From the UHGV virus genome UHGV-0177491: a stretch of DNA of 40,781 bases; one strand, 5' to 3'. Under the pieces are notes generated by a model. That model had not been told where the DNA came from. It was given only the letters and a program-made list of their open reading frames with translations, and did not search any database. Below, one piece after another: positions 7,141 to 40,781 of this stretch. The translations under genes were made by a program, and so were the position numbers. Every line of letters begins with the position of its first letter. Within the stretch, counting starts at the first letter, position 1. The stretch comes from a virus.

Positions 7141-9837
7141 CTATTCCACAACATCATCTTCTATCAATTCAGCCTTATTTAGTTGTTCCTTAAGCTTATT
7201 CCATGCAGAATCCTCAGGCATCTGTACTCGCACAGAAACGAATTGATTAGCAGGAATGTCGATCGGGTCACCGTTCGAAACACCAGGTATGTCGTTACGT
7301 GCAAAAACGGGCGAGTTATCATGAGTGCGGTGAAACGTTTTCACCAACACAGATCCATCTTGGTTAACAACATAATCCAGCCAGATGAGCGGCTGCTTGT
7401 TTCGGTCCTGCGGTATTTCAAATCCACCATCAATCCCACCCCATGAAGCATCTGCATTCAGACCTACGCAACCCTCAATCAGATATTCACCCAATGCCAG
7501 CCGTGTGACGGTTACCCCATCTGATTCGCGATTTGTTTCACTACTACCGTCTGAGAAAATCTTCACAACCGGAGAGGCTTTTTTGATGAAACCACTTGAA
7601 TCGACGGTCGTGTTCAGCGACGACCATGCCTCAGCCCAGCCTGCGTTACCTGCGCGAATAGCATCGCCTGCGTAGCGGAAGAACAGTTTTGATGTTGTGG
7701 ACATGAATATCTGCAACACACGGTTTTTTGCATATCCTGACTCCCATAATGCTCCGTTACCTGTTCCTTCTGGCTGCCAGTTTGTCTTCCCACCTGCTTC
7801 TCCTATACTTACACCAGTAGACCAGTCTCCAGCAAATTCTGGAAGATTTGGTGAGTTAGGTGAGCGAATTGATACATCAACCAGACCAGGGGATCCGAGA
7901 ATCGACATGCTGCGGGAGGACACCTTAGTAAAAGAGTTGTACCCGCCGTTTTTGGAAATCCTTCCTGTATAATTATTAGCCCTGTTGGTTCCATTAACTG
8001 TAATTTCCCAGGTATCGCCGTTGATGAAGTCGATCTGCAATATGCAGTATGCTGGCAGTGTCATCTGTCCTGGCGCAGATGGCCCACCTTCAAACAGTGG
8101 CATATCCTGTTCAAGATATGTCACATATCTACCTGCATCTGTATTCCGCAAATAGTCACAAATAGCTTGTGCCGATGTAAATAGCGCAATACCATCAGCC
8201 GGGTTTACAGGGTGACGGCCAGCGTTAATCACCCTTCCGCGAGGGTTAAATAACTGTGATGCGGCATTGGATAGCGGACTCATGTCTACTGTTCCAGGTT
8301 CATTAGATGGACAGTTAGCGCGAATGATGTTTAAAGTCCTATAATTTGATCCGCCCCCATTGCCATAGCGAATAGACTGTAGAAGATACAATTCCTCAGA
8401 GCCAGAAATATCACAAGACTGCACCCCCTCATTTTCAGTGGAGTAAACACTCTTCCCTGAATAACTATCCCAGTATGTTTTGAAATCTGCAGGTGACAGC
8501 AGGTACTGACCTAATTCTGAACCAGAATGGCTGTACTCAATATAACCCTGCAACCCTGCGAAAGTATTTCCAGATCCCGCCGTGGTAGATGCACCAATAC
8601 CAGCAAATATCCGTTGAGAACCAAGAGCGACACCCTGCCGTTTTGGTTTACCGGCTCCGCGACCTCCAACATTTGCATCAACCGTAATAGTCCCCATTGG
8701 ACTATAAGATCCTTCTATAAGGCTGTTAATATCCAGTGTGTTAAAGATATTGGATACACCTGTCTCAACATCAAAAATTTTCGGCCAACCCATGTCCGCG
8801 TTTTCGTATAGCAGGGTATTACCAAAACCACTGAACTGATATCGCACTCCAAGTTTGGGTGATTCCGTGAAGTTTGTGATCTGCGTTTTATCAGCTAGCG
8901 TGCGCGGGTCTCCGATAGGGTAAATTCTGATAGTGCGGGATGGGCTGTACGGCAGTAGAATATAGCGCTGCCCTGCTTTTCTGTAAACGTGGATGCCTTC
9001 TGGTGCACCAACGTTATTCGGAAAATGAAGACGTGTTACCAATGCTCCTGTTGCCCAGTCATGCACCGTAACCCATACCGATGCGGGGTTTAGCGTCTGC
9101 CAGCCGATGTATACCATTCCATCATTGCTGTCTATGTAAATCCCCTGAAATCCCATGGTCGTATAACCATACTGACCTTTAAGATCTGCGGTAATCTCAT
9201 TGTCTATGATGCTGAATTCTAATTTCCAGTTCAGCGGCCTACGCGTACCACTGACATGTCTGGAAATATGAGACAGGTAGCTTTTAACCCCGCCTGCGAT
9301 AATGTATCTATCTTTGATCTCAGTAACAATTCCAGTTGCAACTGGAGTGCATTTATAGACGCCGCCGTTTATTCTAATAAAATTGGTTCCTGTTAGATTA
9401 TCCCCAATGGCAACGTCTTTGCTACTATTCTTAAACGTCCCATTACCTAAGTCAGTAACAAGCAATGCCCCTTCTACATATTTCAATGACTGATCAGGGT
9501 CATACTTCAGCACATTAGGAAAATAGAACTGCTTAGCACCATATGCATCATAAACAGCCATAGAATGGCCTTGCACAGTTACGAACTTGGCTATTTGCCC
9601 GTTATATACCGGGTAACCAGCAGCGTTAATGATGATTGGTTGCGAAACAGGAACGTGAGAACCGTCTTCATTCTCAACATAAACCTGAATCCGGTTTTCA
9701 GGATTTACCGGGTCAGTGTCAATTTTACCGATATAAATTCTGCCATTGGCATTTGCTTTAAACGAGCGAGCTAAAGTAAATAAGTTACTTGGTTGTGAAA
9801 CGACAACGTTGTATGATTGATTTGGCATAATAAACAT
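7141..9837 (-). CDS. Tailspike protein: P22-type head-binding domain plus unrecognised receptor-binding region
   Basis: N-terminal about 110 aa ([54 protein letters not shown]...[13 protein letters not shown]...NVLKYDPDQ) matches the P22 gp9 head-binding domain as recalled. The remaining about 780 aa are not recognised. Confidence 0.85.
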
Positions 9838-9850
9838 TCCGGAGAAAATA

Positions 9851-10354
9851 ATGAGTAAGAGACGTCACGAGGTAGTAACTCGGGAGCGCCTTATGGAGGT
9901 TCTAGTTTACAATAAAGAAACAGGAATTTTCACCTGGAAAAAGAAATTAAGCGCCAGAGGCGCTGTTGGTAAAGCTGCTGGCACAATCACTCCTTGTGGG
10001 TATAACGCAATTAGTATTGATGGCGTAAGATATTTTGCACATAGACTTGCCTGGCTGTATGTATATGGCGAATGGCCAAAACAAGAGATTGACCACATTG
10101 ATAGAAACAGAAGAAATAACGCAATCTCAAACCTTAGAGATGTTAGCAGGGTCGTAAATGCGTTAAATGTCGGACCTCGAAATAGCAATACTGGAATCAA
10201 GGGGGTAACTTTCTGTCAAGCCAGAAATCAATGGCAAGCTCAGATACATCTCTCAGGTAAAAACATAACTCTTGGGAGATTCAACACCATTGATGAGGCA
10301 GCTATAGCTTATAAGGCAGCAAACATGGTTGCTGACCATCTGTTGGGGCTGTAA
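9851..10354 (+). CDS. HNH homing-type endonuclease with AP2-like DNA-binding domain
   Basis: HNH motif region [22 protein letters not shown]-terminal [43 protein letters not shown] resembles AP2 domains of phage HNH endonucleases. Divergent from the tailspike start, about 13 bp apart. Confidence 0.8.
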
Positions 10355-10420
10355 TGTTTGTCATTTAATTTGCTCCATATACAAGGAACCGCCACGGAGT
10401 GGCTACGGTGAGTTTTTGGC

Positions 10421-10444
10421 ATAAAAAACCCAGCCGAAGCTGGG
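10421..10444 (-). terminator. Intrinsic terminator on the minus strand downstream of the arc region
   Basis: Hairpin CCCAGC-ttcg-GCTGGG followed by TTTTTTat on the minus strand. Confidence 0.45.
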
Positions 10445-10482
10445 TCGTTACGTTTGTTATGTATACCAATTCAATCATGCTG

Positions 10483-10764
10483 TCAATCGACAGGAAACGC
10501 CGTGAAATTTAGCAGGTGTTGTAGTGCCTTAACGCCTTCAGAATTGTAACGGAACGCCTCTACCTGTTTGCTGGAGTGCGACGATTTATCCAGAAAGAAC
10601 TTCCCGTACCGCTCAGTTTTGAGGTTGTTTGCGTTAGCAATGCGACCAATCTTGTTGGCTGTTACTCCAAGATTCTCTGCAACCTCCCTTGCTGAGTAGT
10701 AATGCTCTTCTATTGCCGGAAGAGGTATTCTAGCTAATGCGCCCTTCCTTCTTAAGACTGGCAA
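10483..10764 (-). pseudogene. Possible antirepressor (ant) 5' remnant downstream of arc
   Basis: 93-codon ORF with no in-frame ATG (track start is TTG overlapping arc). Sits where ant lies in P22 immI; the rest of that position is occupied by the opposite-strand HNH gene. Confidence 0.3.
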
Positions 10765-10888
10765 TTACTCTCTGATAAATCTCAGAGTTAACAGATCGAC
10801 CATTCTCTTCCGCCACCTTGCGTACCAAATCCAACACTTCTTTAGGCCACCGCAAATTGAACTGCGGCATCTTGCTCATTCCTTTCAT
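10730..10888 (-). CDS. arc: Arc repressor homolog (ribbon-helix-helix), 52 aa
   Basis: Translation MKGMSKMPQFNLRWPKEVLDLVRKVAEENGRSVNSEIYQRVIASLKKEGRIS is near-identical to P22 Arc as recalled; SD GAGGTG. Not in the ORF track (under 60 aa). Confidence 0.85.
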   Translation of the reverse strand: MKGMSKMPQFNLRWPKEVLDLVRKVAEENGRSVNSEIYQRVIASLKKEGRIS

Positions 10889-10904
10889 ATTCACCTCACA
10901 GCAC

Positions 10905-10950
10905 GGCCCACAGTGGACCTATTGAGAATATAGTAGAGTGATTCTATCAT
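10905..10950 (-). promoter_or_regulatory. immI control region: Arc operator-like and Mnt operator-like sites
   Basis: Minus-strand ATGATAGAATCACTCTACTAT (10930-10950) resembles the P22 arc operator; AGGTCCACTGTGGGCC (10905-10920) resembles the palindromic P22 mnt operator, both from memory. Confidence 0.55.
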
Positions 10951-11044
10951 GCCAGCGCACTAACTTGGAGTGATGGCATGGCAGAGATTGTTCACACACA
11001 AACACCTAAAAAGTCTAATTTGCTCTAATTTTGTGTATTAATGG

Positions 11045-11074
11045 TTGCATAAACAAATAAATTAGGAATATAAT
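11045..11074 (+). promoter_or_regulatory. Sigma70 promoter for the KilA-N/lipoprotein cassette
   Basis: TTGCAT (11045-11050), 18-nt spacer, TATAAT (11069-11074), about 30 bp upstream of the 11106 start. Divergent from the arc promoter. Confidence 0.45.
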
Positions 11075-11105
11075 TTAAGTGAGGTAATTAATTGGAGAAA
11101 AAGAT

Positions 11106-11762
11106 ATGAAAGTGCAGACTTTAGAGTTCCCATACGGTGAAGTCGAGTTCACCAGAGATGAGTATATCGATGCGTCAACACTAACCGTTCAAATGAACCG
11201 ATGGAGATTTGATAACGGTCTTCAACCAAGAAATCTTGCTCAGATACTGAAAACGGATGACTGCAAAGACTTCATGCGTGTTTGTGAAGAGGAGACTGGT
11301 ATTATTCCGTTAAAAACAACGAGAGGAAGGAATGGGAAAACGTGGCTAAGTCTCCATCTGGCGGTGTATGTCGCCGAGCAGTACAGCACTTATTTCCACT
11401 TTCTCGTCATTGATCGTTTTATCACCCAGAGACAGGTCGAGTTGCGAAACATTGGTGCGGCAAGTTTTGTGGAGCTTAACGCAGCAGTTAGTCGGATGCT
11501 TGAGCGTACAGAAGGTAGGATTGGTCATAGTGGTCATTTCATTCAGGTTGCAAAGGTGGTTAAGGAATCGATAGATATCCGTGAAGTTACCGGGTTTGAT
11601 ACCTGGGATTCTCAGGATGCAAAAACCAACCAGTTGCGCAGCGAGATACAGAAGTCTCTTGTTCAGGCTCTTGATATGGAGTTTGTCAACTCGTGGGATG
11701 AGCTGAAAGAGACGATACCGCGAGTTGTGCGTAAATGCGCTGAGAAGATTGCAAGAGCTTAA
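11106..11762 (+). CDS. KilA-N domain-like protein (218 aa)
   Basis: Segment KTTRGRNGKTWLSLHLAVYVAEQYSTYFHFLVIDRF fits the KilA-N/APSES-type pattern as recalled. Occupies the position where mnt/sieA lie in P22. Confidence 0.5.
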   Translation: MKVQTLEFPYGEVEFTRDEYIDASTLTVQMNRWRFDNGLQPRNLAQILKTDDCKDFMRVCEEETGIIPLKTTRGRNGKTWLSLHLAVYVAEQYSTYFHFLVIDRFITQRQVELRNIGAASFVELNAAVSRMLERTEGRIGHSGHFIQVAKVVKESIDIREVTGFDTWDSQDAKTNQLRSEIQKSLVQALDMEFVNSWDELKETIPRVVRKCAEKIARA

Positions 11763-30579: not shown

Positions 30580-30741
30580 TTAAGCGATTCTTCTCAAGCG
30601 AATTACGATTCTTGCGACACCCCACCATTCAGCATCAGACAACATCTCTGATGGTTTAAATGCGTCTGGGAATTGCTGTGGAATGTATCTGGTGAATTTA
30701 GTCTCTGTCCTCACAGGTGCTTTCTTCTTTCGCTTGCTCAT
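30580..30741 (-). CDS. Hypothetical small basic protein (53 aa)
   Basis: ATG at 30741 forms an ATGA overlap with the stop of the upstream antirepressor-like gene. Not in the ORF track. Confidence 0.35.
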   Translation of the reverse strand: MSKRKKKAPVRTETKFTRYIPQQFPDAFKPSEMLSDAEWWGVARIVIRLRRIA

Positions 30742-31427
30742 ATCAACCCCTCATCAGTCAGTTTGCCGACAATCCACATCTCCCCTTCGGCGTAGAACAT
30801 CGCCTGAGAGTGTCCATTATTAGTCTCGCGCATGATGCCGTAGCCTTTGTCGATAAACCATTGCTGGAAGACGCGCCCACGCTTAACTGAACGATTGTAT
30901 ACCCCTAATTGCTCAAGCTGTTTATTCAGCCACACGGCGGATTGCCCGAACTTCTGCGCCACCTGCGACGCGTTATAAAGATTGTTGCGCTCAACGATGC
31001 GGTCGTAAACCTCGGCTTTAGGACTCATTTCCTTGTTCTCCAGTGCAAGGCGCTCTTTCTCTTCCTCTGCTACCACCAGCGCCTTGAGCGCCTCAAGATA
31101 AGTTTGGGGGACAGGAAATGCCGGTTTACTTTCTTGTTCTTCCAGCTCTTGCCAGCGATTAATTATTTTCATACGCAGAGCAGCGCTGTACCCAGCTACA
31201 AGGCAGAGAGATTCTTCCTTGTTCAACAAGTAGACTTTATCTTTGACGGCATGCCCTAAGTTATTAATTCTCTCGACAAATCCAATTTTGGATTGCTCAG
31301 AGATTCCTAACTCTGACAACATAACTCTTATATCTCTGCACACATGCCCATGCTGTTTACCTGTCAGTTCCGCAATCTCACGGCTGGACATGGTTTGCAC
31401 TTCTGCAGCGTTAATTAAACTGCTCAT
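30738..31427 (-). CDS. Antirepressor-like protein, paralog of 2541..3212
   Basis: N-terminal MSSREIAELTGKQHGHVCRDI motif; C-terminal about 95 aa nearly identical to the plus-strand paralog. ATG at 31427 with a purine-rich SD (track ORF extends to 31472). Confidence 0.7.
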   Translation of the reverse strand: MSSLINAAEVQTMSSREIAELTGKQHGHVCRDIRVMLSELGISEQSKIGFVERINNLGHAVKDKVYLLNKEESLCLVAGYSAALRMKIINRWQELEEQESKPAFPVPQTYLEALKALVVAEEEKERLALENKEMSPKAEVYDRIVERNNLYNASQVAQKFGQSAVWLNKQLEQLGVYNRSVKRGRVFQQWFIDKGYGIMRETNNGHSQAMFYAEGEMWIVGKLTDEGLI

Positions 31428-31505
31428 ACATTCCTCTCTCTTGTTGGTGTAACTGTATTTAACTTCCAACATTCATATCGTTCAAATCAGGTTCTTTATC
31501 GTCAC

Positions 31506-32135: not shown

Positions 32136-32422
32136 GACTTAATCTTCCCCTCCCTCAGCAGTATCGCCTGCGTCCTGATCACGCCTTCGAGGTGGTAAAG
32201 TCTGGCGTCTTTGTTGTCGAGATTATGGGTGCGTCGGTCGATCTCCGCGTGGCAGTCACTACAAGCCCATGCACCGATCAGGTCGTCAGGCTTCATTCCC
32301 GTTCCGCAAATTCCAGCCATCCGGTAATGTGCCAGAACTGTAGTTTCAGGATTACCATTGCATACGCCGTAAATACGTACCTGGCATTCTCTGCCGCGTG
32401 CTTCTTTGCGTAGGTTAGCCAT
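32132..32422 (-). CDS. DUF1364-family (YbcO-like) protein
   Basis: Cys/His-rich 96-aa protein immediately upstream of rusA, as in the DLP12 ybcO-rusA arrangement. Confidence 0.6.
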   Translation of the reverse strand: MANLRKEARGRECQVRIYGVCNGNPETTVLAHYRMAGICGTGMKPDDLIGAWACSDCHAEIDRRTHNLDNKDARLYHLEGVIRTQAILLREGKIKS

Positions 32423-33192
32423 TAAGCAGCCTCCCCTGTTACTTTCAGCATTCCGTTATCGAGCAGCTTTCTGGTCAGCCACTGTTGACCACGCCCGGTG
32501 ATTTTTGTGGTGAACGATATCTGTATTCCGTGATTTGTGTTGACCGCTGTTTCTTTCACTGTGAAATAGCCGCGCTCCATATATTCCTGCATTGGCACAT
32601 TGCGCCGGGAACCTGAAGCAATAAGGATTTTGTGATCACGCATCCACGCAAACAGTTTGTTTGGACCAGTACCGACAACCTTTGCAAAGTTTCCAATCAA
32701 AATTCCGCTGGCCTCGCCAACGCGATCGGCAAACTCAACTTTAGGTGCTGCGAGAGCAAGCTGCTGTTCCAACTTCACCTTCTGCTCATACTCATTAGCC
32801 CATGCTCTGGCAGCCTCTGCCGGGTTGGAGAAGTCAGGCAGTTGTAATTGCTGGCTCACTTTGTTGCGGAAATAGTTCCTCACCAACTCTCGCTGTACGC
32901 GCCACGCTGTCTCATCACGTAGTGTCTTTACCAGCATCAGATAGCCGGATTCTGTGAAAACCCTTAAGCCATTTGGTGAAATTTTCATCGACGGGTAGGC
33001 CGTCTGTTGCGTAAAATCAATAAGATACGTATCTTCTCCGTCTATAAAATATTTCGCGTTTCTCGCATAACCATCTTTGATAGTGGTTACTGGAACCCCG
33101 TGAATATCAGCAATCATTTGATACGTAACAACACGCTCACCATTAAACTCAATCGGCACGATTTCTGCGTTGGCAATAATTACGGCATTCAT
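32422..33192 (-). CDS. Antirepressor-like protein (ORF6N N-terminal domain plus Ant-like C-terminal region)
   Basis: N-terminal EFNGERVVTYQMIADIHGV...GLRVFTESGYLMLVK (ORF6N-like); central PDFSNPAEAARAWANEYEQK shared with the 2541..3212 protein. Confidence 0.65.
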   Translation of the reverse strand: MNAVIIANAEIVPIEFNGERVVTYQMIADIHGVPVTTIKDGYARNAKYFIDGEDTYLIDFTQQTAYPSMKISPNGLRVFTESGYLMLVKTLRDETAWRVQRELVRNYFRNKVSQQLQLPDFSNPAEAARAWANEYEQKVKLEQQLALAAPKVEFADRVGEASGILIGNFAKVVGTGPNKLFAWMRDHKILIASGSRRNVPMQEYMERGYFTVKETAVNTNHGIQISFTTKITGRGQQWLTRKLLDNGMLKVTGEAA

Positions 33193-33474: not shown

Positions 33475-33942
33475 TTAAACGCGAATGCGCACAAACTTAC
33501 AACCTAACGCCGATTTTATCTCTTCCTCGCGAATGCGATCCGCGTCCATATGCTGAGGCGCAAAATGTTGTTCCTCGTCTATTTCATAGGCGATATTGTT
33601 TACAGGATCATAGCCATCTATGCGGTATTTATCTAAAACCGGATATTGCCTTATTAATTTAACTCCTTGTAATTGTTCGATGGTGGTTAATGCTATTGTC
33701 TCAGCACATCTATTTAATGCTATTCTCTGATGCTTAAACACGTTAGCAACATCAGCATCAACAACAAAAACCTCTCGCTTAACTTTGAATCCTAGATTAT
33801 TTTCATAATATTCATATTTAATATCGTGCTTTATCCCGTTTTTTATTATGGTACGTTTCACATTGTCATGACGCTTACCCACCAACTCAGCGATTTCAAT
33901 GCTTGTCATTTTGATGGCATTGCCATTTATTAACTCATTCAT
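33475..33942 (-). CDS. Rha-type DNA-binding domain fused to a putative Vsr/DUF559-like endonuclease domain
   Basis: N-terminal MTSIEIAELVGKRHDNVKR; C-terminal AYEIDEEQHF...DADRIREEEIKSALGCKFVRIRV resembles a PD-(D/E)xK Vsr-like nuclease signature. Confidence 0.45.
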   Translation of the reverse strand: MNELINGNAIKMTSIEIAELVGKRHDNVKRTIIKNGIKHDIKYEYYENNLGFKVKREVFVVDADVANVFKHQRIALNRCAETIALTTIEQLQGVKLIRQYPVLDKYRIDGYDPVNNIAYEIDEEQHFAPQHMDADRIREEEIKSALGCKFVRIRV

Positions 33943-35761: not shown

Positions 35762-38668
35762 TTAATACTCCGTCACGTTTTCCTGTCGCCACGCCTCGTC
35801 ATATTCCGATTTCGGCATATTGGCGATGTAGCTATATGGCGATCCTGATTCAAGTTGCAGGAACTGGTGCGATTGCTCGTCAAGGAACAACGAGACACCA
35901 CCTTCCCAACCTTCGCCGTTACGTTGTTTTTCAAGCATCAAAACAGATGCCGGAGATGCCAGTAGCTGTTCGTCCTTCTCTGTCATCTTTTCACCACTCT
36001 GAACTCTCTGTAACGCTCTCTCGCGAGCCTTGTTACGCCAGATGATGAAAAGGTTGTCTGTCAGGTCTGTTATCGCGCCAGAGCCTTTTACGTCCATTTT
36101 CCCGGTTGGTTTTTCTTCGCTGTCTCCTTTTCGCGAGTGAGTAACGAGAATGACGTGGGAGTTTGTTTTGTTTTTGAAGTCGCAAATCGAGTCAACAAAC
36201 GCCTTCTGCCCGTTATAGTCATCGTCACCTATGCCGCATTTCATCAGGCTGTCGATGATGAATAACTGGATGCCGTATCGGCGGCGAGCGTAGTCGAATA
36301 TTTCGATCAGCCTGTCGGCTTTCGCCGTTCCGGTCAGGCCAAACACCCAAAGTCTTTCGTCATAAAATTTAAATGCAGAGTCAATTTCCAGCACTGGCGG
36401 CATCTTGCAGCACGTCGCCTGACGGGTAAGGCGCTTAAGGAGAATACCAGGCTTCAGCTCAAGTGACGCGATGCACGTCTTCACACCCTGACGCATTGCC
36501 TCAAGTGCCATATGCCCGACAACCTCGGTGTTATGCGTCGCCACATATCCCCTGGTTACATACAGGTGGCGAGGGTGATCGACCATAATACACAAGCATT
36601 CTGCATTGCCTATTTTTTCAACATTCCTGACGAATACCCCACAGCCCTCGAATCGATGCGCAGTTAATCTGCCATTGAGTCGTGGTGAACGGATGGCATC
36701 CCTGATTTCTCTTGTCAGTCTGATTCTTGCCTCGTATGAATCCATCCCATGCCGCTTATCGCCCTTGTATGTGTATGTCACGCCAGTTTTAACTCGCGTC
36801 CGGCATGACCCGCCGAGTGAGTTAACCAGTTGAACAACCCCATTGAGCAGTTCTTCACTTGCTGAGGAAAAAACAAGCGTTCCATCCTTCTCGACATACC
36901 CATCCGTTTCAAGCAGACCACACAGCATGCCTATACGCGTTGATTTATTTGCAGAAAAAAACACACGAGGGATGAATTTGTTTTTTGCTGTGCACCCCAT
37001 TAGTCCATAACCTCGCAGGGTCTCCATGAGTGGATTTACCTGACCACGCGCCGTTGATATCAGCCAGTCCTTACCATCTCCAGAGAAGTTGTAATCAGGC
37101 AGTTCAGCCTTCATACGCTCGATCATGTATGGCTCGACGTTTGAAAACTTCACGCTCCCATTGCTAAGACTACCATCCCCGAGAAGGGAGCCGATAACCC
37201 ATGCTAATGGCTCTGAGTGGTCGCCAAAGTCACCAGTTATTTCAGGAATCCTAACGCCATTTTTGTGCCTCTTCGTTTCACTCAACCGTTTCAGCTCGAA
37301 GGTGTCTATCACGCGGCGCTTCTCGCCTTTCGTGAATCCACGACTAGTGACCTCCCATAGGTGATCGCCTGCGCAATCAACATAACGACCATCTTCAAAT
37401 GTGACTCGGTAAACATCTCTAACACCCTGCGGGAATATCCCGGTGACAGTTGACGGATTGCCGTCAACTGACGCCACCTGATCGCCAATTTTTACATCCC
37501 CGTGAGTAGTCCATTCACCATTAGCGAGCAGAATTGGTTCATCAAGTGGACAGGCTTTTCCGTGACCGTTCACACCATTGACCAGCGTCAACTCGGCCTC
37601 ACGGAACTGGAATTTATCTGCCAGAGATTCCCACGGTGGATTAAACAGATACTGCTGCTTGCCGTAGAAAGCGTTGATAGTGTCCTGGTAAAACTCTCGC
37701 GCGCTGTAGAGTTCTTCAGGATCGAAGTAGGATGCCGTGCCGATGTACTGCCAGATTTCATCCTCGGTAACACCGTTCATCAGGCATTCGTTGATGTCTT
37801 TGTACGGCAGAGTAACAAGACGGCAACGATGTTCACCGAGTCGGCTTGCGATTTCCCTTGCGGCTTCACGACCAACATCATCAACGTCCATCGAGATGAA
37901 TATTTCCTCAAACCTGTCGAGGTTGTGATACTCAAACTCAATCCACTGTTGCTTAGCGCCTTTCCCGCCACCAAACGGCACGGATAACGCCGAGATGCCG
38001 TATTGCGCATAGCTCATACAATCAATTTCGCCTTCGCAAAGTACAACCGCCCTCACGCCAGCGTCCAGAGCCTGCCATCCGAACAGACAAGGTTCGCAAT
38101 CACCTTCTGCCATAATGACTTTCTTCCCGTCCGGGCGCTCAGTGCTGATTCGCTTGACCTGCAACAACTCACCATCGCGTTTGTACGGAAGCACCAGTGC
38201 ATCAAGTTCTCGTTCTCCATCCCACACCTTGCCGCTGACAACCTCGTAGCGCTTTACGACTTCTGGCGATATGCCACGCGATTGCAGGTACTCAAGATGG
38301 GATTCTGTTCTGGTAACGTAGCGGGCGATTTTCTTGCGGTCAGGTCTGGAGAATTTCTTCTCACGTTTGGCATCGAAATGGTGATCGTCATCCTTGATTC
38401 CGAGAAATGCTTTCGCTTCCTGCATAGCCTGATGCAGGTTAATTCCACGACATGCCATCCACAAATCAAGCATGTCACCGCCGTCTCCCTCAGCGAAATC
38501 AGCCCATTTTTTCTTGCCGCTAAGGTTGACCTTAAGGCTGTTTCCCTTGTCACCGTTGACGTTACCGGCAACCCACTCATGCCCCTCTTTCTTGCCGTTT
38601 GGCAACAGGTGCGGAGCCACCCTGTCAACCTGCGCCCAAAGCAGGTCGCTGAGTTCACTTGGCCTCAT
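35762..38668 (-). CDS. Primase-helicase (Toprim primase domain plus DnaB/SF4-like helicase domain) carrying an intein
   Basis: Toprim motif VVLCEGEIDCMSY; helicase motifs GVNGHGK (Walker A), LFIIDSL, VTHSRK, KGSGAITDLTDNLFIIWR. A 341-aa insertion interrupts the Walker A. Confidence 0.85.
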   Translation of the reverse strand: MRPSELSDLLWAQVDRVAPHLLPNGKKEGHEWVAGNVNGDKGNSLKVNLSGKKKWADFAEGDGGDMLDLWMACRGINLHQAMQEAKAFLGIKDDDHHFDAKREKKFSRPDRKKIARYVTRTESHLEYLQSRGISPEVVKRYEVVSGKVWDGERELDALVLPYKRDGELLQVKRISTERPDGKKVIMAEGDCEPCLFGWQALDAGVRAVVLCEGEIDCMSYAQYGISALSVPFGGGKGAKQQWIEFEYHNLDRFEEIFISMDVDDVGREAAREIASRLGEHRCRLVTLPYKDINECLMNGVTEDEIWQYIGTASYFDPEELYSAREFYQDTINAFYGKQQYLFNPPWESLADKFQFREAELTLVNGVNGHGKACPLDEPILLANGEWTTHGDVKIGDQVASVDGNPSTVTGIFPQGVRDVYRVTFEDGRYVDCAGDHLWEVTSRGFTKGEKRRVIDTFELKRLSETKRHKNGVRIPEITGDFGDHSEPLAWVIGSLLGDGSLSNGSVKFSNVEPYMIERMKAELPDYNFSGDGKDWLISTARGQVNPLMETLRGYGLMGCTAKNKFIPRVFFSANKSTRIGMLCGLLETDGYVEKDGTLVFSSASEELLNGVVQLVNSLGGSCRTRVKTGVTYTYKGDKRHGMDSYEARIRLTREIRDAIRSPRLNGRLTAHRFEGCGVFVRNVEKIGNAECLCIMVDHPRHLYVTRGYVATHNTEVVGHMALEAMRQGVKTCIASLELKPGILLKRLTRQATCCKMPPVLEIDSAFKFYDERLWVFGLTGTAKADRLIEIFDYARRRYGIQLFIIDSLMKCGIGDDDYNGQKAFVDSICDFKNKTNSHVILVTHSRKGDSEEKPTGKMDVKGSGAITDLTDNLFIIWRNKARERALQRVQSGEKMTEKDEQLLASPASVLMLEKQRNGEGWEGGVSLFLDEQSHQFLQLESGSPYSYIANMPKSEYDEAWRQENVTEY
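36530..37552 (-). mobile_element. Intein with LAGLIDADG homing-endonuclease domain inserted in the helicase P-loop
   Basis: Insertion begins with Cys after GVNGHGKA, contains LAWVIGSLLGDGS and RIGMLCGLLETDGYV (two LAGLIDADG-type motifs), ends VATHN followed by Thr. Residues about 373-713 of the host protein. Confidence 0.7.
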
Positions 38669-38775: not shown

Positions 38776-39546
38776 TCACCTGTCGAAAAACACGTAGCCA
38801 GTTTTCGATACGGTGATTGCGGATGATGGTTTGGATTGTGGTTGAATAGTTTCTGGCTTCTCGTCGTTCCAGCGTTGACCGTTCAGGTAGCTCGATGGTA
38901 ACAACCTGTCGAATCCGAACTGCTTACCACTCCTGCATGCGATGTCTTCTGCCAGCATCGTGGCAAACTCGCTTGCCGTACCCCTTGTAGTTTTACGCCA
39001 TTCCCTGAACTGTGTTCTGAATGCTGAAGCTGCGTTTTTCTTCCCGGCTTTCCGCATGCCTGCACACCAGAATATTTCCTCGAATGCCTTGTCGGTTTCT
39101 TCGTGACGGTCAGGAGTTTTTTCACACTCTGTTCGGACATGTTCGAACATAATGTTTTTAGGTTCATTGACTGGTTCAAAAGAGTGACTGGTTCTGGGTG
39201 CAGCTCCTGCACCACCCCCTAGTGAATCTCCTGCACCAGGGTGGTGAATCTCCTGCACTACCCCTAGTGAATCTCCTGCACCCCCAAGCCGAAGAATATA
39301 GATATTACTTGAGTTGCCTTTTTCACCTTTTCGGGTGACTTTTTTTAGCAAGCCAGCCTCACAAAGAGCCTCAATATGGTTAATCACGGAGCGTTTGCTA
39401 ATCTCGCACTGGTCAGCGATATGCTGATATGAAGGCCAGCATTCGCCATTGTCATTGGCGTTATCGGCAAGTTTAAGCAGAACCAGTTTTCTGAGCGGGT
39501 TTCCAACTTTGGCTCCCATTGCCTTCACCATCAGAATCATACTCAT
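38776..39546 (-). CDS. Iteron-binding replication initiator (lambda O-like)
   Basis: N-terminal wHTH-like region (KLVLLKLADNANDNGECWPSYQHIADQCEISKRSV); iteron repeats lie inside the coding sequence; position after cro and the cII remnant. Confidence 0.75.
   Translation of the reverse strand: MSMILMVKAMGAKVGNPLRKLVLLKLADNANDNGECWPSYQHIADQCEISKRSVINHIEALCEAGLLKKVTRKGEKGNSSNIYILRLGGAGDSLGVVQEIHHPGAGDSLGGGAGAAPRTSHSFEPVNEPKNIMFEHVRTECEKTPDRHEETDKAFEEIFWCAGMRKAGKKNAASAFRTQFREWRKTTRGTASEFATMLAEDIACRSGKQFGFDRLLPSSYLNGQRWNDEKPETIQPQSKPSSAITVSKTGYVFFDR
39204..39290. repeat. Intragenic iterons (about four degenerate 22-bp repeats) forming the replication origin
   Basis: Units CTCCTGCACC...GTGAATC repeated with variation inside the initiator gene; related to the perfect repeats at the window ends. 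Confidence 0.7.
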
Positions 39547-39862: not shown

Positions 39863-39988
39863 CTATTCATGACAGCCAATCATCTTTGCCAGACCGCGCT
39901 GGGTAAGCGTTGACAGGTTGATGAGTAAATCAGTTTCTGCGCGATCAATTTCTCGCTGTGTTGGCTTGCTGTAACTTGCTTGTGTCAT
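39863..39988 (-). pseudogene. Truncated cII-like ORF (41 codons)
   Basis: MTQASYSKPTQREIDRAETDLLINLSTLTQRGLAKMIGCHE resembles the N-terminal part of lambda CII in pattern and position but stops before a complete HTH. Weak call. Confidence 0.3.
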
Positions 39989-40072
39989 TTGTTAATTCAC
40001 CAATAGTGAATAGTTAGTTGAAAGGTATGCGTGGAAACGCATATAGCCTTAGTTGGTCAGATATCTTGGAAC

Positions 40073-40117
40073 TCGCTTTTCAGCGACGTAGGACGAATGT
40101 CCGTTGTTACAAAGAGC
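40073..40117 (-). promoter_or_regulatory. nutR-like site (boxA plus boxB)
   Basis: Minus-strand GCTCTTTGTAACAA (boxA-like) and TCGCT-GAAAA-AGCGA hairpin (boxB-like, same loop as nutL) just downstream of the cro-like gene. Confidence 0.55.
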
Positions 40118-40128
40118 AGTCCCGCTTA

Positions 40129-40344
40129 TTAAGCGGCTTTGTGTTCCGGCGGGAACACGTCATCAAGACTTACATTTGCGCCTAACTTGTTCAGGTAAGC
40201 AACGAGAGCACGGCATGTTTTAAGATCTGGCATGCGACGACCACTTTCCCAATGACCGACAGCCGACTGTGTGCATCCAACTGCCTTAGCAAGTATTGTT
40301 TGACTGATGCTCACTGACTTTCGATATTTCTTAAGGTTGTTCAT
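40129..40344 (-). CDS. Cro-like HTH (XRE-family) regulator
   Basis: 71 aa with HTH QTILAKAVGCTQSAVGHWESG; first gene of the minus-strand early operon. Confidence 0.65.
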   Translation of the reverse strand: MNNLKKYRKSVSISQTILAKAVGCTQSAVGHWESGRRMPDLKTCRALVAYLNKLGANVSLDDVFPPEHKAA

Positions 40345-40737: not shown

Positions 40738-40781
40738 TCCTGCACCACCCTGGTGAATCTCCTGCACCACCCTGGTGAATC
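40738..40781. repeat. Iteron array: two perfect 22-bp units continuing to the window end
   Basis: TCCTGCACCACCCTGGTGAATC twice, identical to units at 1-66; joined end to start the array would hold at least five perfect units. Confidence 0.85.

Follow-up and report, generated by a model that had tools for sequence, protein, structure and literature searches.

An HNH endonuclease cassette in the first codons of the tailspike gene and a decayed antirepressor-type gene in the ant moron of a P22-like phage

Background

In Aeromonas phage Aeh1 the homing endonuclease gene mobE splits nrdA without an intron or intein; the free-standing endonuclease gene lies inside the coding region and the host gene is still functional, as translation resumes beyond the insert. 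Proteins with an HNH and an AP2 domain form a recognised family of homing endonucleases, according to a passage in PMC10448857 that cites Magnani et al. 2004. In P22-like phages the ε34 genome paper (Villafane et al. 2008, PMC2629481) describes an 'ant moron', which is highly variable, with ten types in sixteen genomes, and in HK620 and Scho1 contains apparently degraded ant genes (PMC2629481). Here we describe the ant moron (immI) of the UHGV virus genome UHGV-0177491, a P22-like phage (Lederbergvirus). The whole stretch of 40,781 bp that was analysed is called the window below, and it carries an HNH endonuclease gene within the 5' end of the tailspike gene. All positions are window coordinates and the minus strand is the direction of late transcription.

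[quoted passage not shown] It differs from them in that it is not intergenic: it replaces the start and the first 27 codons of its neighbour and leaves behind a 'ghost' start. The 'IPA-HNH' genes of ICP1 and MobE of T4 are functional analogues of the HNH gene in the window, whose homing is predicted from sequence. Unlike in Aeh1, only the start and five more codons have been severed, these are replaced by the cassette, and no two-piece protein is required. The moron itself has the same place between the injection-protein genes and the tailspike gene as in other P22-like phages, and shows the same mosaicism and decay. Whereas HK620 and Scho1 have an apparently decayed ant, the decayed gene in the window is KilA/Roi-like and represents an alternative moron type (found in JEP4, AR_0058 and 980-2); mnt, ant and the sar region are all gone while arc was kept. 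The tailspike-linked HNH gene and the decayed antirepressor-type gene are both of known kinds. No description of a tailspike-embedded HNH gene was found in the Kapi1 papers and P22-like genomics papers searched, and the HNH clade wedged in the first tailspike codons of P22-like phages is apparently undescribed.

Results and discussion

Structure of the cassette

On the minus strand the order is arc, a 93-codon ORF, a rho-independent terminator, the ghost start, the HNH gene (on the opposite strand) and the tailspike gene. The cassette and the features that adjoin it are as follows.

About 9747-10346, unstranded: putative mobile cassette of 600 bp, consisting of the recoded tailspike 5' end, a spacer and the HNH gene (nucleotide diversity of 24 loci)
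7141-9828, minus strand: tailspike gene, 895 aa when the ATG at 9828 is taken as the start (ORF list; N-terminus aligned with Kapi1, Combat2C1 and AR_0058)
9748-9828, minus strand: recoded first 27 tailspike codons, the right arm of the cassette (comparison with loci lacking the HNH gene)
9829-9850, unstranded: divergent spacer of 22 nt between the tailspike ATG and the HNH ATG (read from the sequence)
9851-10354, plus strand: free-standing HNH_3 and AP2-like endonuclease gene, 167 aa (Pfam and PHROG matches)
10347-10376, minus strand: ghost tailspike start, with SD GGAG at 10376-10373, ATG at 10364-10362 and five more codons (MTNITA) (alignment with 980-2 and TW05614)
10399-10460, minus strand: P22-type ant terminator region, with a stem at 10446-10427 and a T-run (terminator scan; 93.5% identity to the sequence downstream of P22-like ant)

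The cassette boundaries are defined by nucleotide diversity, which among 24 main-class loci was 0-1.1% within 9747-10346, 4.6-15% directly to the left and 16-43% to the right. For the comparisons below, 35 loci carrying the HNH gene (HNH genes 73-95% identical; 31 further loci came from scans with the HNH protein) were set against 80 loci lacking this HNH lineage, 7 of which carry an unrelated HNH gene. All loci of both sets have the same tailspike head-binding domain. The cassette in the window is a distinct allele compared with that of Escherichia phage vB_EcoP_Kapi1 (Kapi1), with approximately 5% DNA divergence and a one-codon indel.

At its right end, the cassette extends into the tailspike gene, where the recoded N-terminus replaces the canonical MTDITANVVVSMPSQLFTMARSFKAVA. 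In the consensus of the main-class cassettes, non-canonical codons occupy 21 of the first 27 positions, and 13 of these changes are synonymous. Between loci with the HNH gene and the 80 loci lacking it, the mismatch amounted to 41-55% in tailspike nt 1-60 and to 22% in nt 61-90, after which it dropped to the level found within the groups. A recoded 32-mer was confined to HNH carriers (21 of 21 IMG/VR contigs). The tailspike has a P22-type head-binding N-terminal domain, and clustering of the tailspike bodies showed that its receptor-binding body is absent from the other HNH-bearing loci.

The HNH gene and the tailspike gene are divergent. The gap of 13 nt between their starts that was given in the preliminary description is correct for the first tailspike ATG (9837), an upstream in-frame codon that would lengthen the tailspike by 3 codons; to the second ATG (9828), which is the start annotated in Kapi1 and aligned with relatives, the gap is 22 nt. 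This spacer contains the SD sequence of the HNH gene (GGAG, 9841-9844) and no strong SD sequence for the tailspike gene, and it is conserved in all main-class loci.

At the other end of the cassette lies the ghost start. It is identical to the working start of the HNH-free tailspike genes (census of the 80 loci), which in HNH-free genomes follows the terminator as GGAGCAAATTAA, ATG ACA GAC/AAC ATT ACA GCC AAT GTT ... (MTDITANVVVSMPSQLFTMARSFKAVANG...). Past the ghost start the minus strand continues as the complement of the 3' end of the HNH gene, whose stop codon overlaps the ghost. The ghost start follows the HNH stop codon in 8 of 8 distinct ghost variants (15 HNH-bearing loci examined). 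We considered the ghost start as a part of the cassette and rejected this, since diversity jumps at 10347 and the ghost sequence tracks the type of the upstream flank. The ghost start also opens an ORF of 20 codons (10364-10302, minus strand), antisense to the 3' end of the HNH gene; with its strong SD sequence and ATG, this ORF could be translated from late or Pant transcripts. The ant terminator is intact and lies between the remnant described below and the ghost start.

Linkage to the tailspike gene and genomic context

The HNH gene is divergent from and adjoins the tailspike N-terminus in 35 of 35 loci, onto all of which reference proteins were mapped, and its other side varies. An intact P22-type ant with arc and mnt was found there in approximately 13 loci, an intact KilA-type gene in 5 (L005, L022, L023, L025 and L037), only an mnt-like gene in approximately 9, an injection-protein gene directly in 2, and no match to any reference protein in 2. 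The gene Kapi1_066 has the same position and orientation as the HNH gene in the window, and Kapi1 shares the ghost start and the recoded tailspike N-terminus. Unlike the window, Kapi1 keeps P22-type ant, arc and mnt intact beside the cassette; in Kapi1 and E. coli Combat2C1 the order is tailspike, HNH, intact P22-type ant, arc and mnt, and approximately 12 IMG/VR contigs have the same HNH position and an intact ant, arc and mnt. E. coli AR_0058 has the order tailspike, HNH, mnt-like gene, 73-aa gene, intact KilA-type gene, Rha-type gene and Arc-like gene. The HNH gene is lacking in E. coli 980-2, E7476 and TW05614, where a KilA-type or ant gene is directly followed by the terminator and the tailspike.

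L023 has a tailspike gene, the HNH gene and an intact KilA-type gene. It is collinear with positions 9489-10729 of the window (89.4% over 1241 nt) and the match ends exactly at the arc junction and stop codon. The truncation of the KilA-type gene is therefore a separate event, on the side of the fragment that faces away from the HNH gene. A distance of 383 bp lies between the breakpoint (10729/10730) and the cassette edge (10346/10347).

At least 18 unrelated tailspike body types are joined to the cassette (25 loci, including the window). It was found in 15 of 5426 complete E. coli genomes, with HNH genes identical to Kapi1_066; 901 of these genomes matched a query consisting of the tailspike 5' end, the HNH gene, the remnant, arc and the Pant/Pmnt region. 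Among 50,697 phage records a close copy was present in Kapi1 only. No E. coli genome or phage record covered at least 80% of positions 9700-11100.

A second HNH lineage, 36% identical to that in the window, was found in other P22-like prophages (L009:2721-3230, and L051, L059, L065, L069, L080, L102 and L108), divergent and just upstream of the canonical tailspike start. The tailspike 5' junction looks like a hotspot that was used independently by two endonuclease lineages.

The HNH protein

As was described preliminarily, the gene at 9851-10354 encodes an HNH protein. It matched Pfam HNH_3 well over the cut-off (2e-16, 59.7 bits versus 24.8) and phrog_99 'HNH endonuclease' (5.9e-62), and the catalytic motif (D81-H82) is intact and invariant in nine clade members. 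The protein has 94.5% amino acid identity to Kapi1_066 (QOC59582.1), with a dN/dS of 0.19. Compared with the 73-79% identical variants, pN was 0.14-0.18 and pS 0.76-0.83, so synonymous sites are saturated. The protein is under purifying selection, and by the same comparison the association with the tailspike locus is old. The L043 copy is frameshifted. Outside the clade, the nearest annotated homing enzymes have at most 47% identity and come from many unrelated phages. A search of the PDB sequences with the HNH protein gave no match, and neither did NCBIfam scans of the HNH protein, the 93-codon ORF, the full-length KilA-type protein and two neighbouring genes.

A shorter HNH protein starting at M15, as in the RefSeq annotation of Combat2C1, was rejected because residues 6-14 (HEV[VL]TR[ED]RL) are conserved in variants with saturated synonymous sites. 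The only promoter candidate, TTGGCA-16-GAAAAT (9822-9849), ends 1 nt ahead of the ATG.

The 93-codon ORF is judged a fragment of a KilA/Roi-like gene

The other features of the region, upstream of the terminator, are as follows.

10483-10764, minus strand: 93-codon ORF, judged to be a pseudogene fragment (phrog_1726, 1.1e-37; tblastn; alignment to 4 full-length homologues)
10730-10735, minus strand: recombination junction, six bases AGCTAG (alignment with phiKp_30, E7476, AR_0058 and P22)
10730-10888, minus strand: P22-type arc, 52 aa from the canonical ATG, with a C-terminus altered by the junction (Pfam Arc, 3.3e-28)
10895-11028, unstranded: P22-type Pant/Pmnt divergent promoter and operator region and mnt stub (BLAST to P22-like phages)

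An ORF of 93 codons without an in-frame ATG or GTG is indeed present at 10764-10483 on the minus strand, as had been reported. The only start-like codon available is a TTG located 35 nt within arc and in a different frame, with GAGAG just 3 nt upstream, and the ORF has no usable ribosome-binding site. Codons 1-12 derive from arc in another reading frame and the final 8 codons differ from those of relatives. The part in between originates from the 3' end of a KilA/Roi-like gene annotated as 'anti-repressor': positions 10729-10507 are the 3'-terminal 223 bp of that gene, with a DNA identity of 92-95% that ends exactly at 10729. Within the ORF, codons 13-86 represent the 3'-terminal 74 codons of a gene with 241 codons (approximately residues 165-237 in four full-length homologues of 241-242 aa), and the N-terminal 163-164 codons are absent. 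The ORF product matched positions 181-259 of 264 of the phrog_1726 'anti-repressor' profile (residues 11-86, 1.1e-37) and residues 164-239 of the intact L023 protein (6e-46), and it is 83-93% identical to the C-termini of full-length phrog_1726 members. In tblastn, residues 13-86 were 92-93% identical to the C-termini of the 'KilA protein' JEP4_17 and its phiKp_30 homologue (Lederbergviruses, 241-242 aa) and 63% identical to 'antirepressor/Roi' proteins of Stx phages. The ORF in the window differs from these proteins in that it retains only 74 of 241 codons and no start codon. From these comparisons we judged the ORF to be a dead fragment of an anti-repressor-annotated gene and a product of ordinary gene decay.

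The expression 'ant-like remnant' used earlier is partly right. The ORF is a gene remnant and its parent is annotated as anti-repressor, but it does not resemble P22 Ant and it is not an N-terminus. The suggested comparison of the 93-aa product with P22-type Ant gave a BLASTP E value of 22, and neither Bro-N nor P22_AR_C was matched; the Ant of Kapi1, in contrast, matched both. When two Ant proteins were compared with the whole window by tblastn, nothing matched. For the full-length KilA-type family no Pfam or NCBIfam model was matched, and 'antirepressor' is an annotation label for this KilA/Roi-like family.

The junction reads GGAAGGGCGCATT (arc) / AGCTAG / AATACC (KilA-type gene) on the minus strand. 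The six bases match neither parent and supply a new stop codon for arc; Arc therefore ends in ...GRIS* rather than in ...GRIGA*. A translational fusion of the 93-codon ORF with Arc was rejected, as the frames differ. The exact 22-mer of the junction was not found in genome_contigs or viral_contigs, and the 24-mer was not found in metagenome_contigs.

The claim that arc is intact was borne out, with the reservation that its tail was altered at the junction. It spans 10894/10888-10730 on the minus strand, has 91-92% nucleotide identity to P22-like arc and encodes a protein that differs from P22 Arc by R16K, M42I, E43A and F45L and by its C-terminus (...KKEGRIS* versus ...KKEGRIGA*). Together, arc and Pant/Pmnt are approximately 91% identical to the P22 type, with homology extending to 10988 and promoter-like hexamers at 10955-10927 (minus strand) and 10922-10950 (plus strand). 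The P22 immI module (mnt, Pmnt/Pant, arc, sar, ant) is incomplete and only arc and Pant/Pmnt are kept whole. Neither ant nor the sar-encoding spacer between arc and ant is present, the P22 homology stopping at the final arc codons, while mnt is reduced to a stub of 16 codons (10978-11028), the remainder being replaced by foreign DNA. The place of mnt is taken by a gene for a 218-aa protein (10976-11762; phrog_6095, weak KilA-N match), which at the DNA level shares 86-87% identity with a gene found in virulent Jersey-like siphophages of Salmonella. The similarity points to a horizontal transfer across unrelated phage groups, the gene now lying downstream of the P22-type Pmnt.

Elsewhere in the window, an early-left gene for a 221-aa protein (4734-5399, plus strand) shares 60% identity with the KilA/Roi-like protein over the N-terminal domain of the latter (residues 15-108) but has a different C-terminus, a case of domain shuffling inside one genome. 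Four antirepressor-type loci were found at 2541-3212 (plus strand), 30738-31472, 32422-33192 and 33475-33942 (all minus strand). Three of these are intact genes in which a KilAC/ANT 'antirepressor' domain is joined to an N-terminal domain of the Rha or ORF6N type; the fourth gives no more than a weak match to Rha. The window is thus rich in antirepressor-like genes outside immI.

Proposed history and alternative explanations

The preliminary description placed the HNH gene in the slot of ant and proposed that it had been gained at the cost of ant, or that a homing event had disrupted ant. The location is incorrect: the slot of ant, bounded by arc and the ant terminator (10427-10446), is occupied by the remnant, and the HNH gene is outside it because it lies beyond the terminator, within the tailspike 5' end. 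The proposed replacement had some appeal, since the HNH gene and the truncated gene are at most 130 bp apart and the usual P22 ant is missing. Moreover, double-strand breaks made by homing enzymes can lead to flanking deletions, so that break repair could have deleted most of ant. However, the same cassette occurs beside an intact P22-type ant (Kapi1, Combat2C1 and approximately 12 IMG/VR contigs) or beside an intact KilA-type gene (5 loci), the breakpoint at 10729/10730 and the edge of the cassette have the fragment itself, an intact terminator and the ghost start between them, P22 ant is not the source of the fragment, and the HNH gene is always linked to the tailspike start and never to ant. 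Loss of ant through the HNH gene is thus hardly credible. We consider it probable that the endonuclease did not displace the antirepressor and that two separate events took place in a hypervariable ant moron.

From the compared loci we infer a cleavage activity, a target site and an order of events. The 600-bp cassette would first have lodged within the first tailspike codons, severing the original SD sequence, the ATG and five more codons, and would have brought a replacement ATG and 27 recoded codons; with this substitute start the tailspike would still be made. The enzyme is predicted to cut the canonical tailspike 5' end of cassette-free co-infecting phages or resident prophages, probably at a site within the approximately 80 nt that are recoded in carriers, after which recombinational repair would copy the cassette into the cut genome. 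Crossovers would resolve at the first usable homology, that is from tailspike nt 82 onward and in the SD/ATG region, and the recoded flank would shield the carrier from its own enzyme. In the second event, starting from an ancestor with a tailspike gene, an HNH gene and an intact KilA/Roi-like gene of 241 codons, as in L023, a separate illegitimate recombination would have fused a segment with P22-type arc and Pant/Pmnt onto the KilA/Roi-like gene at codon 164. This exchange would have removed the first two thirds of that gene and anything upstream, leaving a dead fragment of 223 bp. Loss of mnt would represent a third exchange, importing the Jerseyvirus-like gene.

A discrete and nearly identical cassette, present or absent at one site, with a conserved target and a diverged linked flank, corresponds to the standard signature of free-standing homing elements. 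That the cassette is an active homing element for the P22-like tailspike 5' end, which drives shuffling of the receptor-binding and ant-moron modules, is nonetheless a tentative proposal, and we hold it to be possible rather than likely. Several observations weigh against homing by the cassette. The AP2 half of the HNH/AP2 designation is less secure, as the Pfam AP2 match (residues 114-157, 1.3e-5, 25.9 bits) stayed under the cut-off of 33.3 bits. Great diversity marks the left flanks of the cassette; double-crossover homing in its simple form does not on its own account for every context, and later exchange of the ant moron is needed as well. The saturated HNH variants are all at one locus, which fits long retention, possibly in a domesticated role, no less well than repeated homing. 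No convincing HNH promoter was found in a scan in which promoter-like sites were no commoner than in shuffled sequence, and the Kapi1 publications do not mention the HNH gene.

Alternatively, the gene may have ceased to be, or may never have been, a selfish homing enzyme and may serve as a retained phage function, for instance as a weapon against competing P22-like prophages or as an antisense regulator of tailspike expression. The strong purifying selection and the saturated synonymous divergence between variants at a single locus agree with this, as does the presence of the second, unrelated HNH lineage (36% identity) in the same intergenic neighbourhood of other phages. The late transcript also has to run through the HNH gene in antisense to reach the tailspike gene, and the ε34 paper remarks that tailspike levels may be determined by read-through of the ant moron (PMC2629481). 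On the other hand, the rarity of the cassette (15 of 5426 E. coli genomes, compared with 901 that match the regional query) does not suggest a needed function, near-identical cassettes across at least 17 different tailspike backgrounds indicate recent horizontal spread, and presence/absence polymorphism with a recoded flank is a classic homing signature; in addition, the L043 copy is frameshifted. A retained function therefore seems unlikely to us. The 93-codon ORF, in turn, might be a working small gene that encodes a stand-alone C-terminal KilA/Roi-like domain and is expressed from Pant after arc. Its frame remains open through all 93 codons without internal stops, which speaks against its being a dead fragment, and the fragment resembles a discrete domain. 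It lies within the Pant transcript, upstream of the terminator, and PHROG 32874, a profile of 114 positions of unknown function, matched residues 12-84 (9.6e-18), which may mean that this domain also occurs in short proteins. Such a gene would have to start without ATG or GTG, from a TTG inside arc with GAGAG 3 nt upstream; its first 12 codons are out-of-frame arc, its last 8 are divergent and 164 of 241 codons are missing. Searches of three large collections did not recover the junction, and nothing therefore points to a maintained lineage. We regard a functional small gene as very improbable and retain the interpretation of a decayed fragment.

Other features of the genome

The early-left genes abut the 3' end of the tailspike gene (7141), as in the sewage phage phiKp_30 (33.7 kb), and no integrase, excisionase or O-antigen conversion genes are present between them (7078-7141). 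A search for a Kapi1-type integrase across the window was negative and no ORF of the size of a CI repressor was seen in the window. The phage may be a non-integrating derivative of a temperate lineage, judging from its layout. Given the absence of an integrase and the phiKp_30-like layout, the antirepressor module may be of little use in this phage.

A gene for a 968-aa primase/helicase (35762-38668, minus strand; Toprim_2 and AAA_25) is split by an intein with Hint and LAGLIDADG_3 domains, which is thus a second homing-type element in the same genome. The ends of the window (1-44 and 40738-40781) share a direct repeat of 44 nt, composed of two 22-nt units. These repeats look like origin iterons within a replication-initiator gene (38776-39546), and a diverged second copy of the N-terminus of the initiator gene is located nearby, at approximately 39900-40200. 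The contig may have been closed or cut inside the iteron array.

Conclusions

The tailspike start in HNH-bearing P22-like phages is not the canonical one, of which annotators should be aware. If the proposed homing takes place, gene conversion would be repeatedly started at the very boundary where receptor-binding and ant-moron modules are exchanged, and a homing element would reside inside an ORF by carrying a substitute gene start, instead of an intron or intein. If the enzyme is active, these phages would offer a tractable system for studying whether homing endonucleases promote the exchange of receptor-binding modules, with Kapi1 as a cultured carrier.

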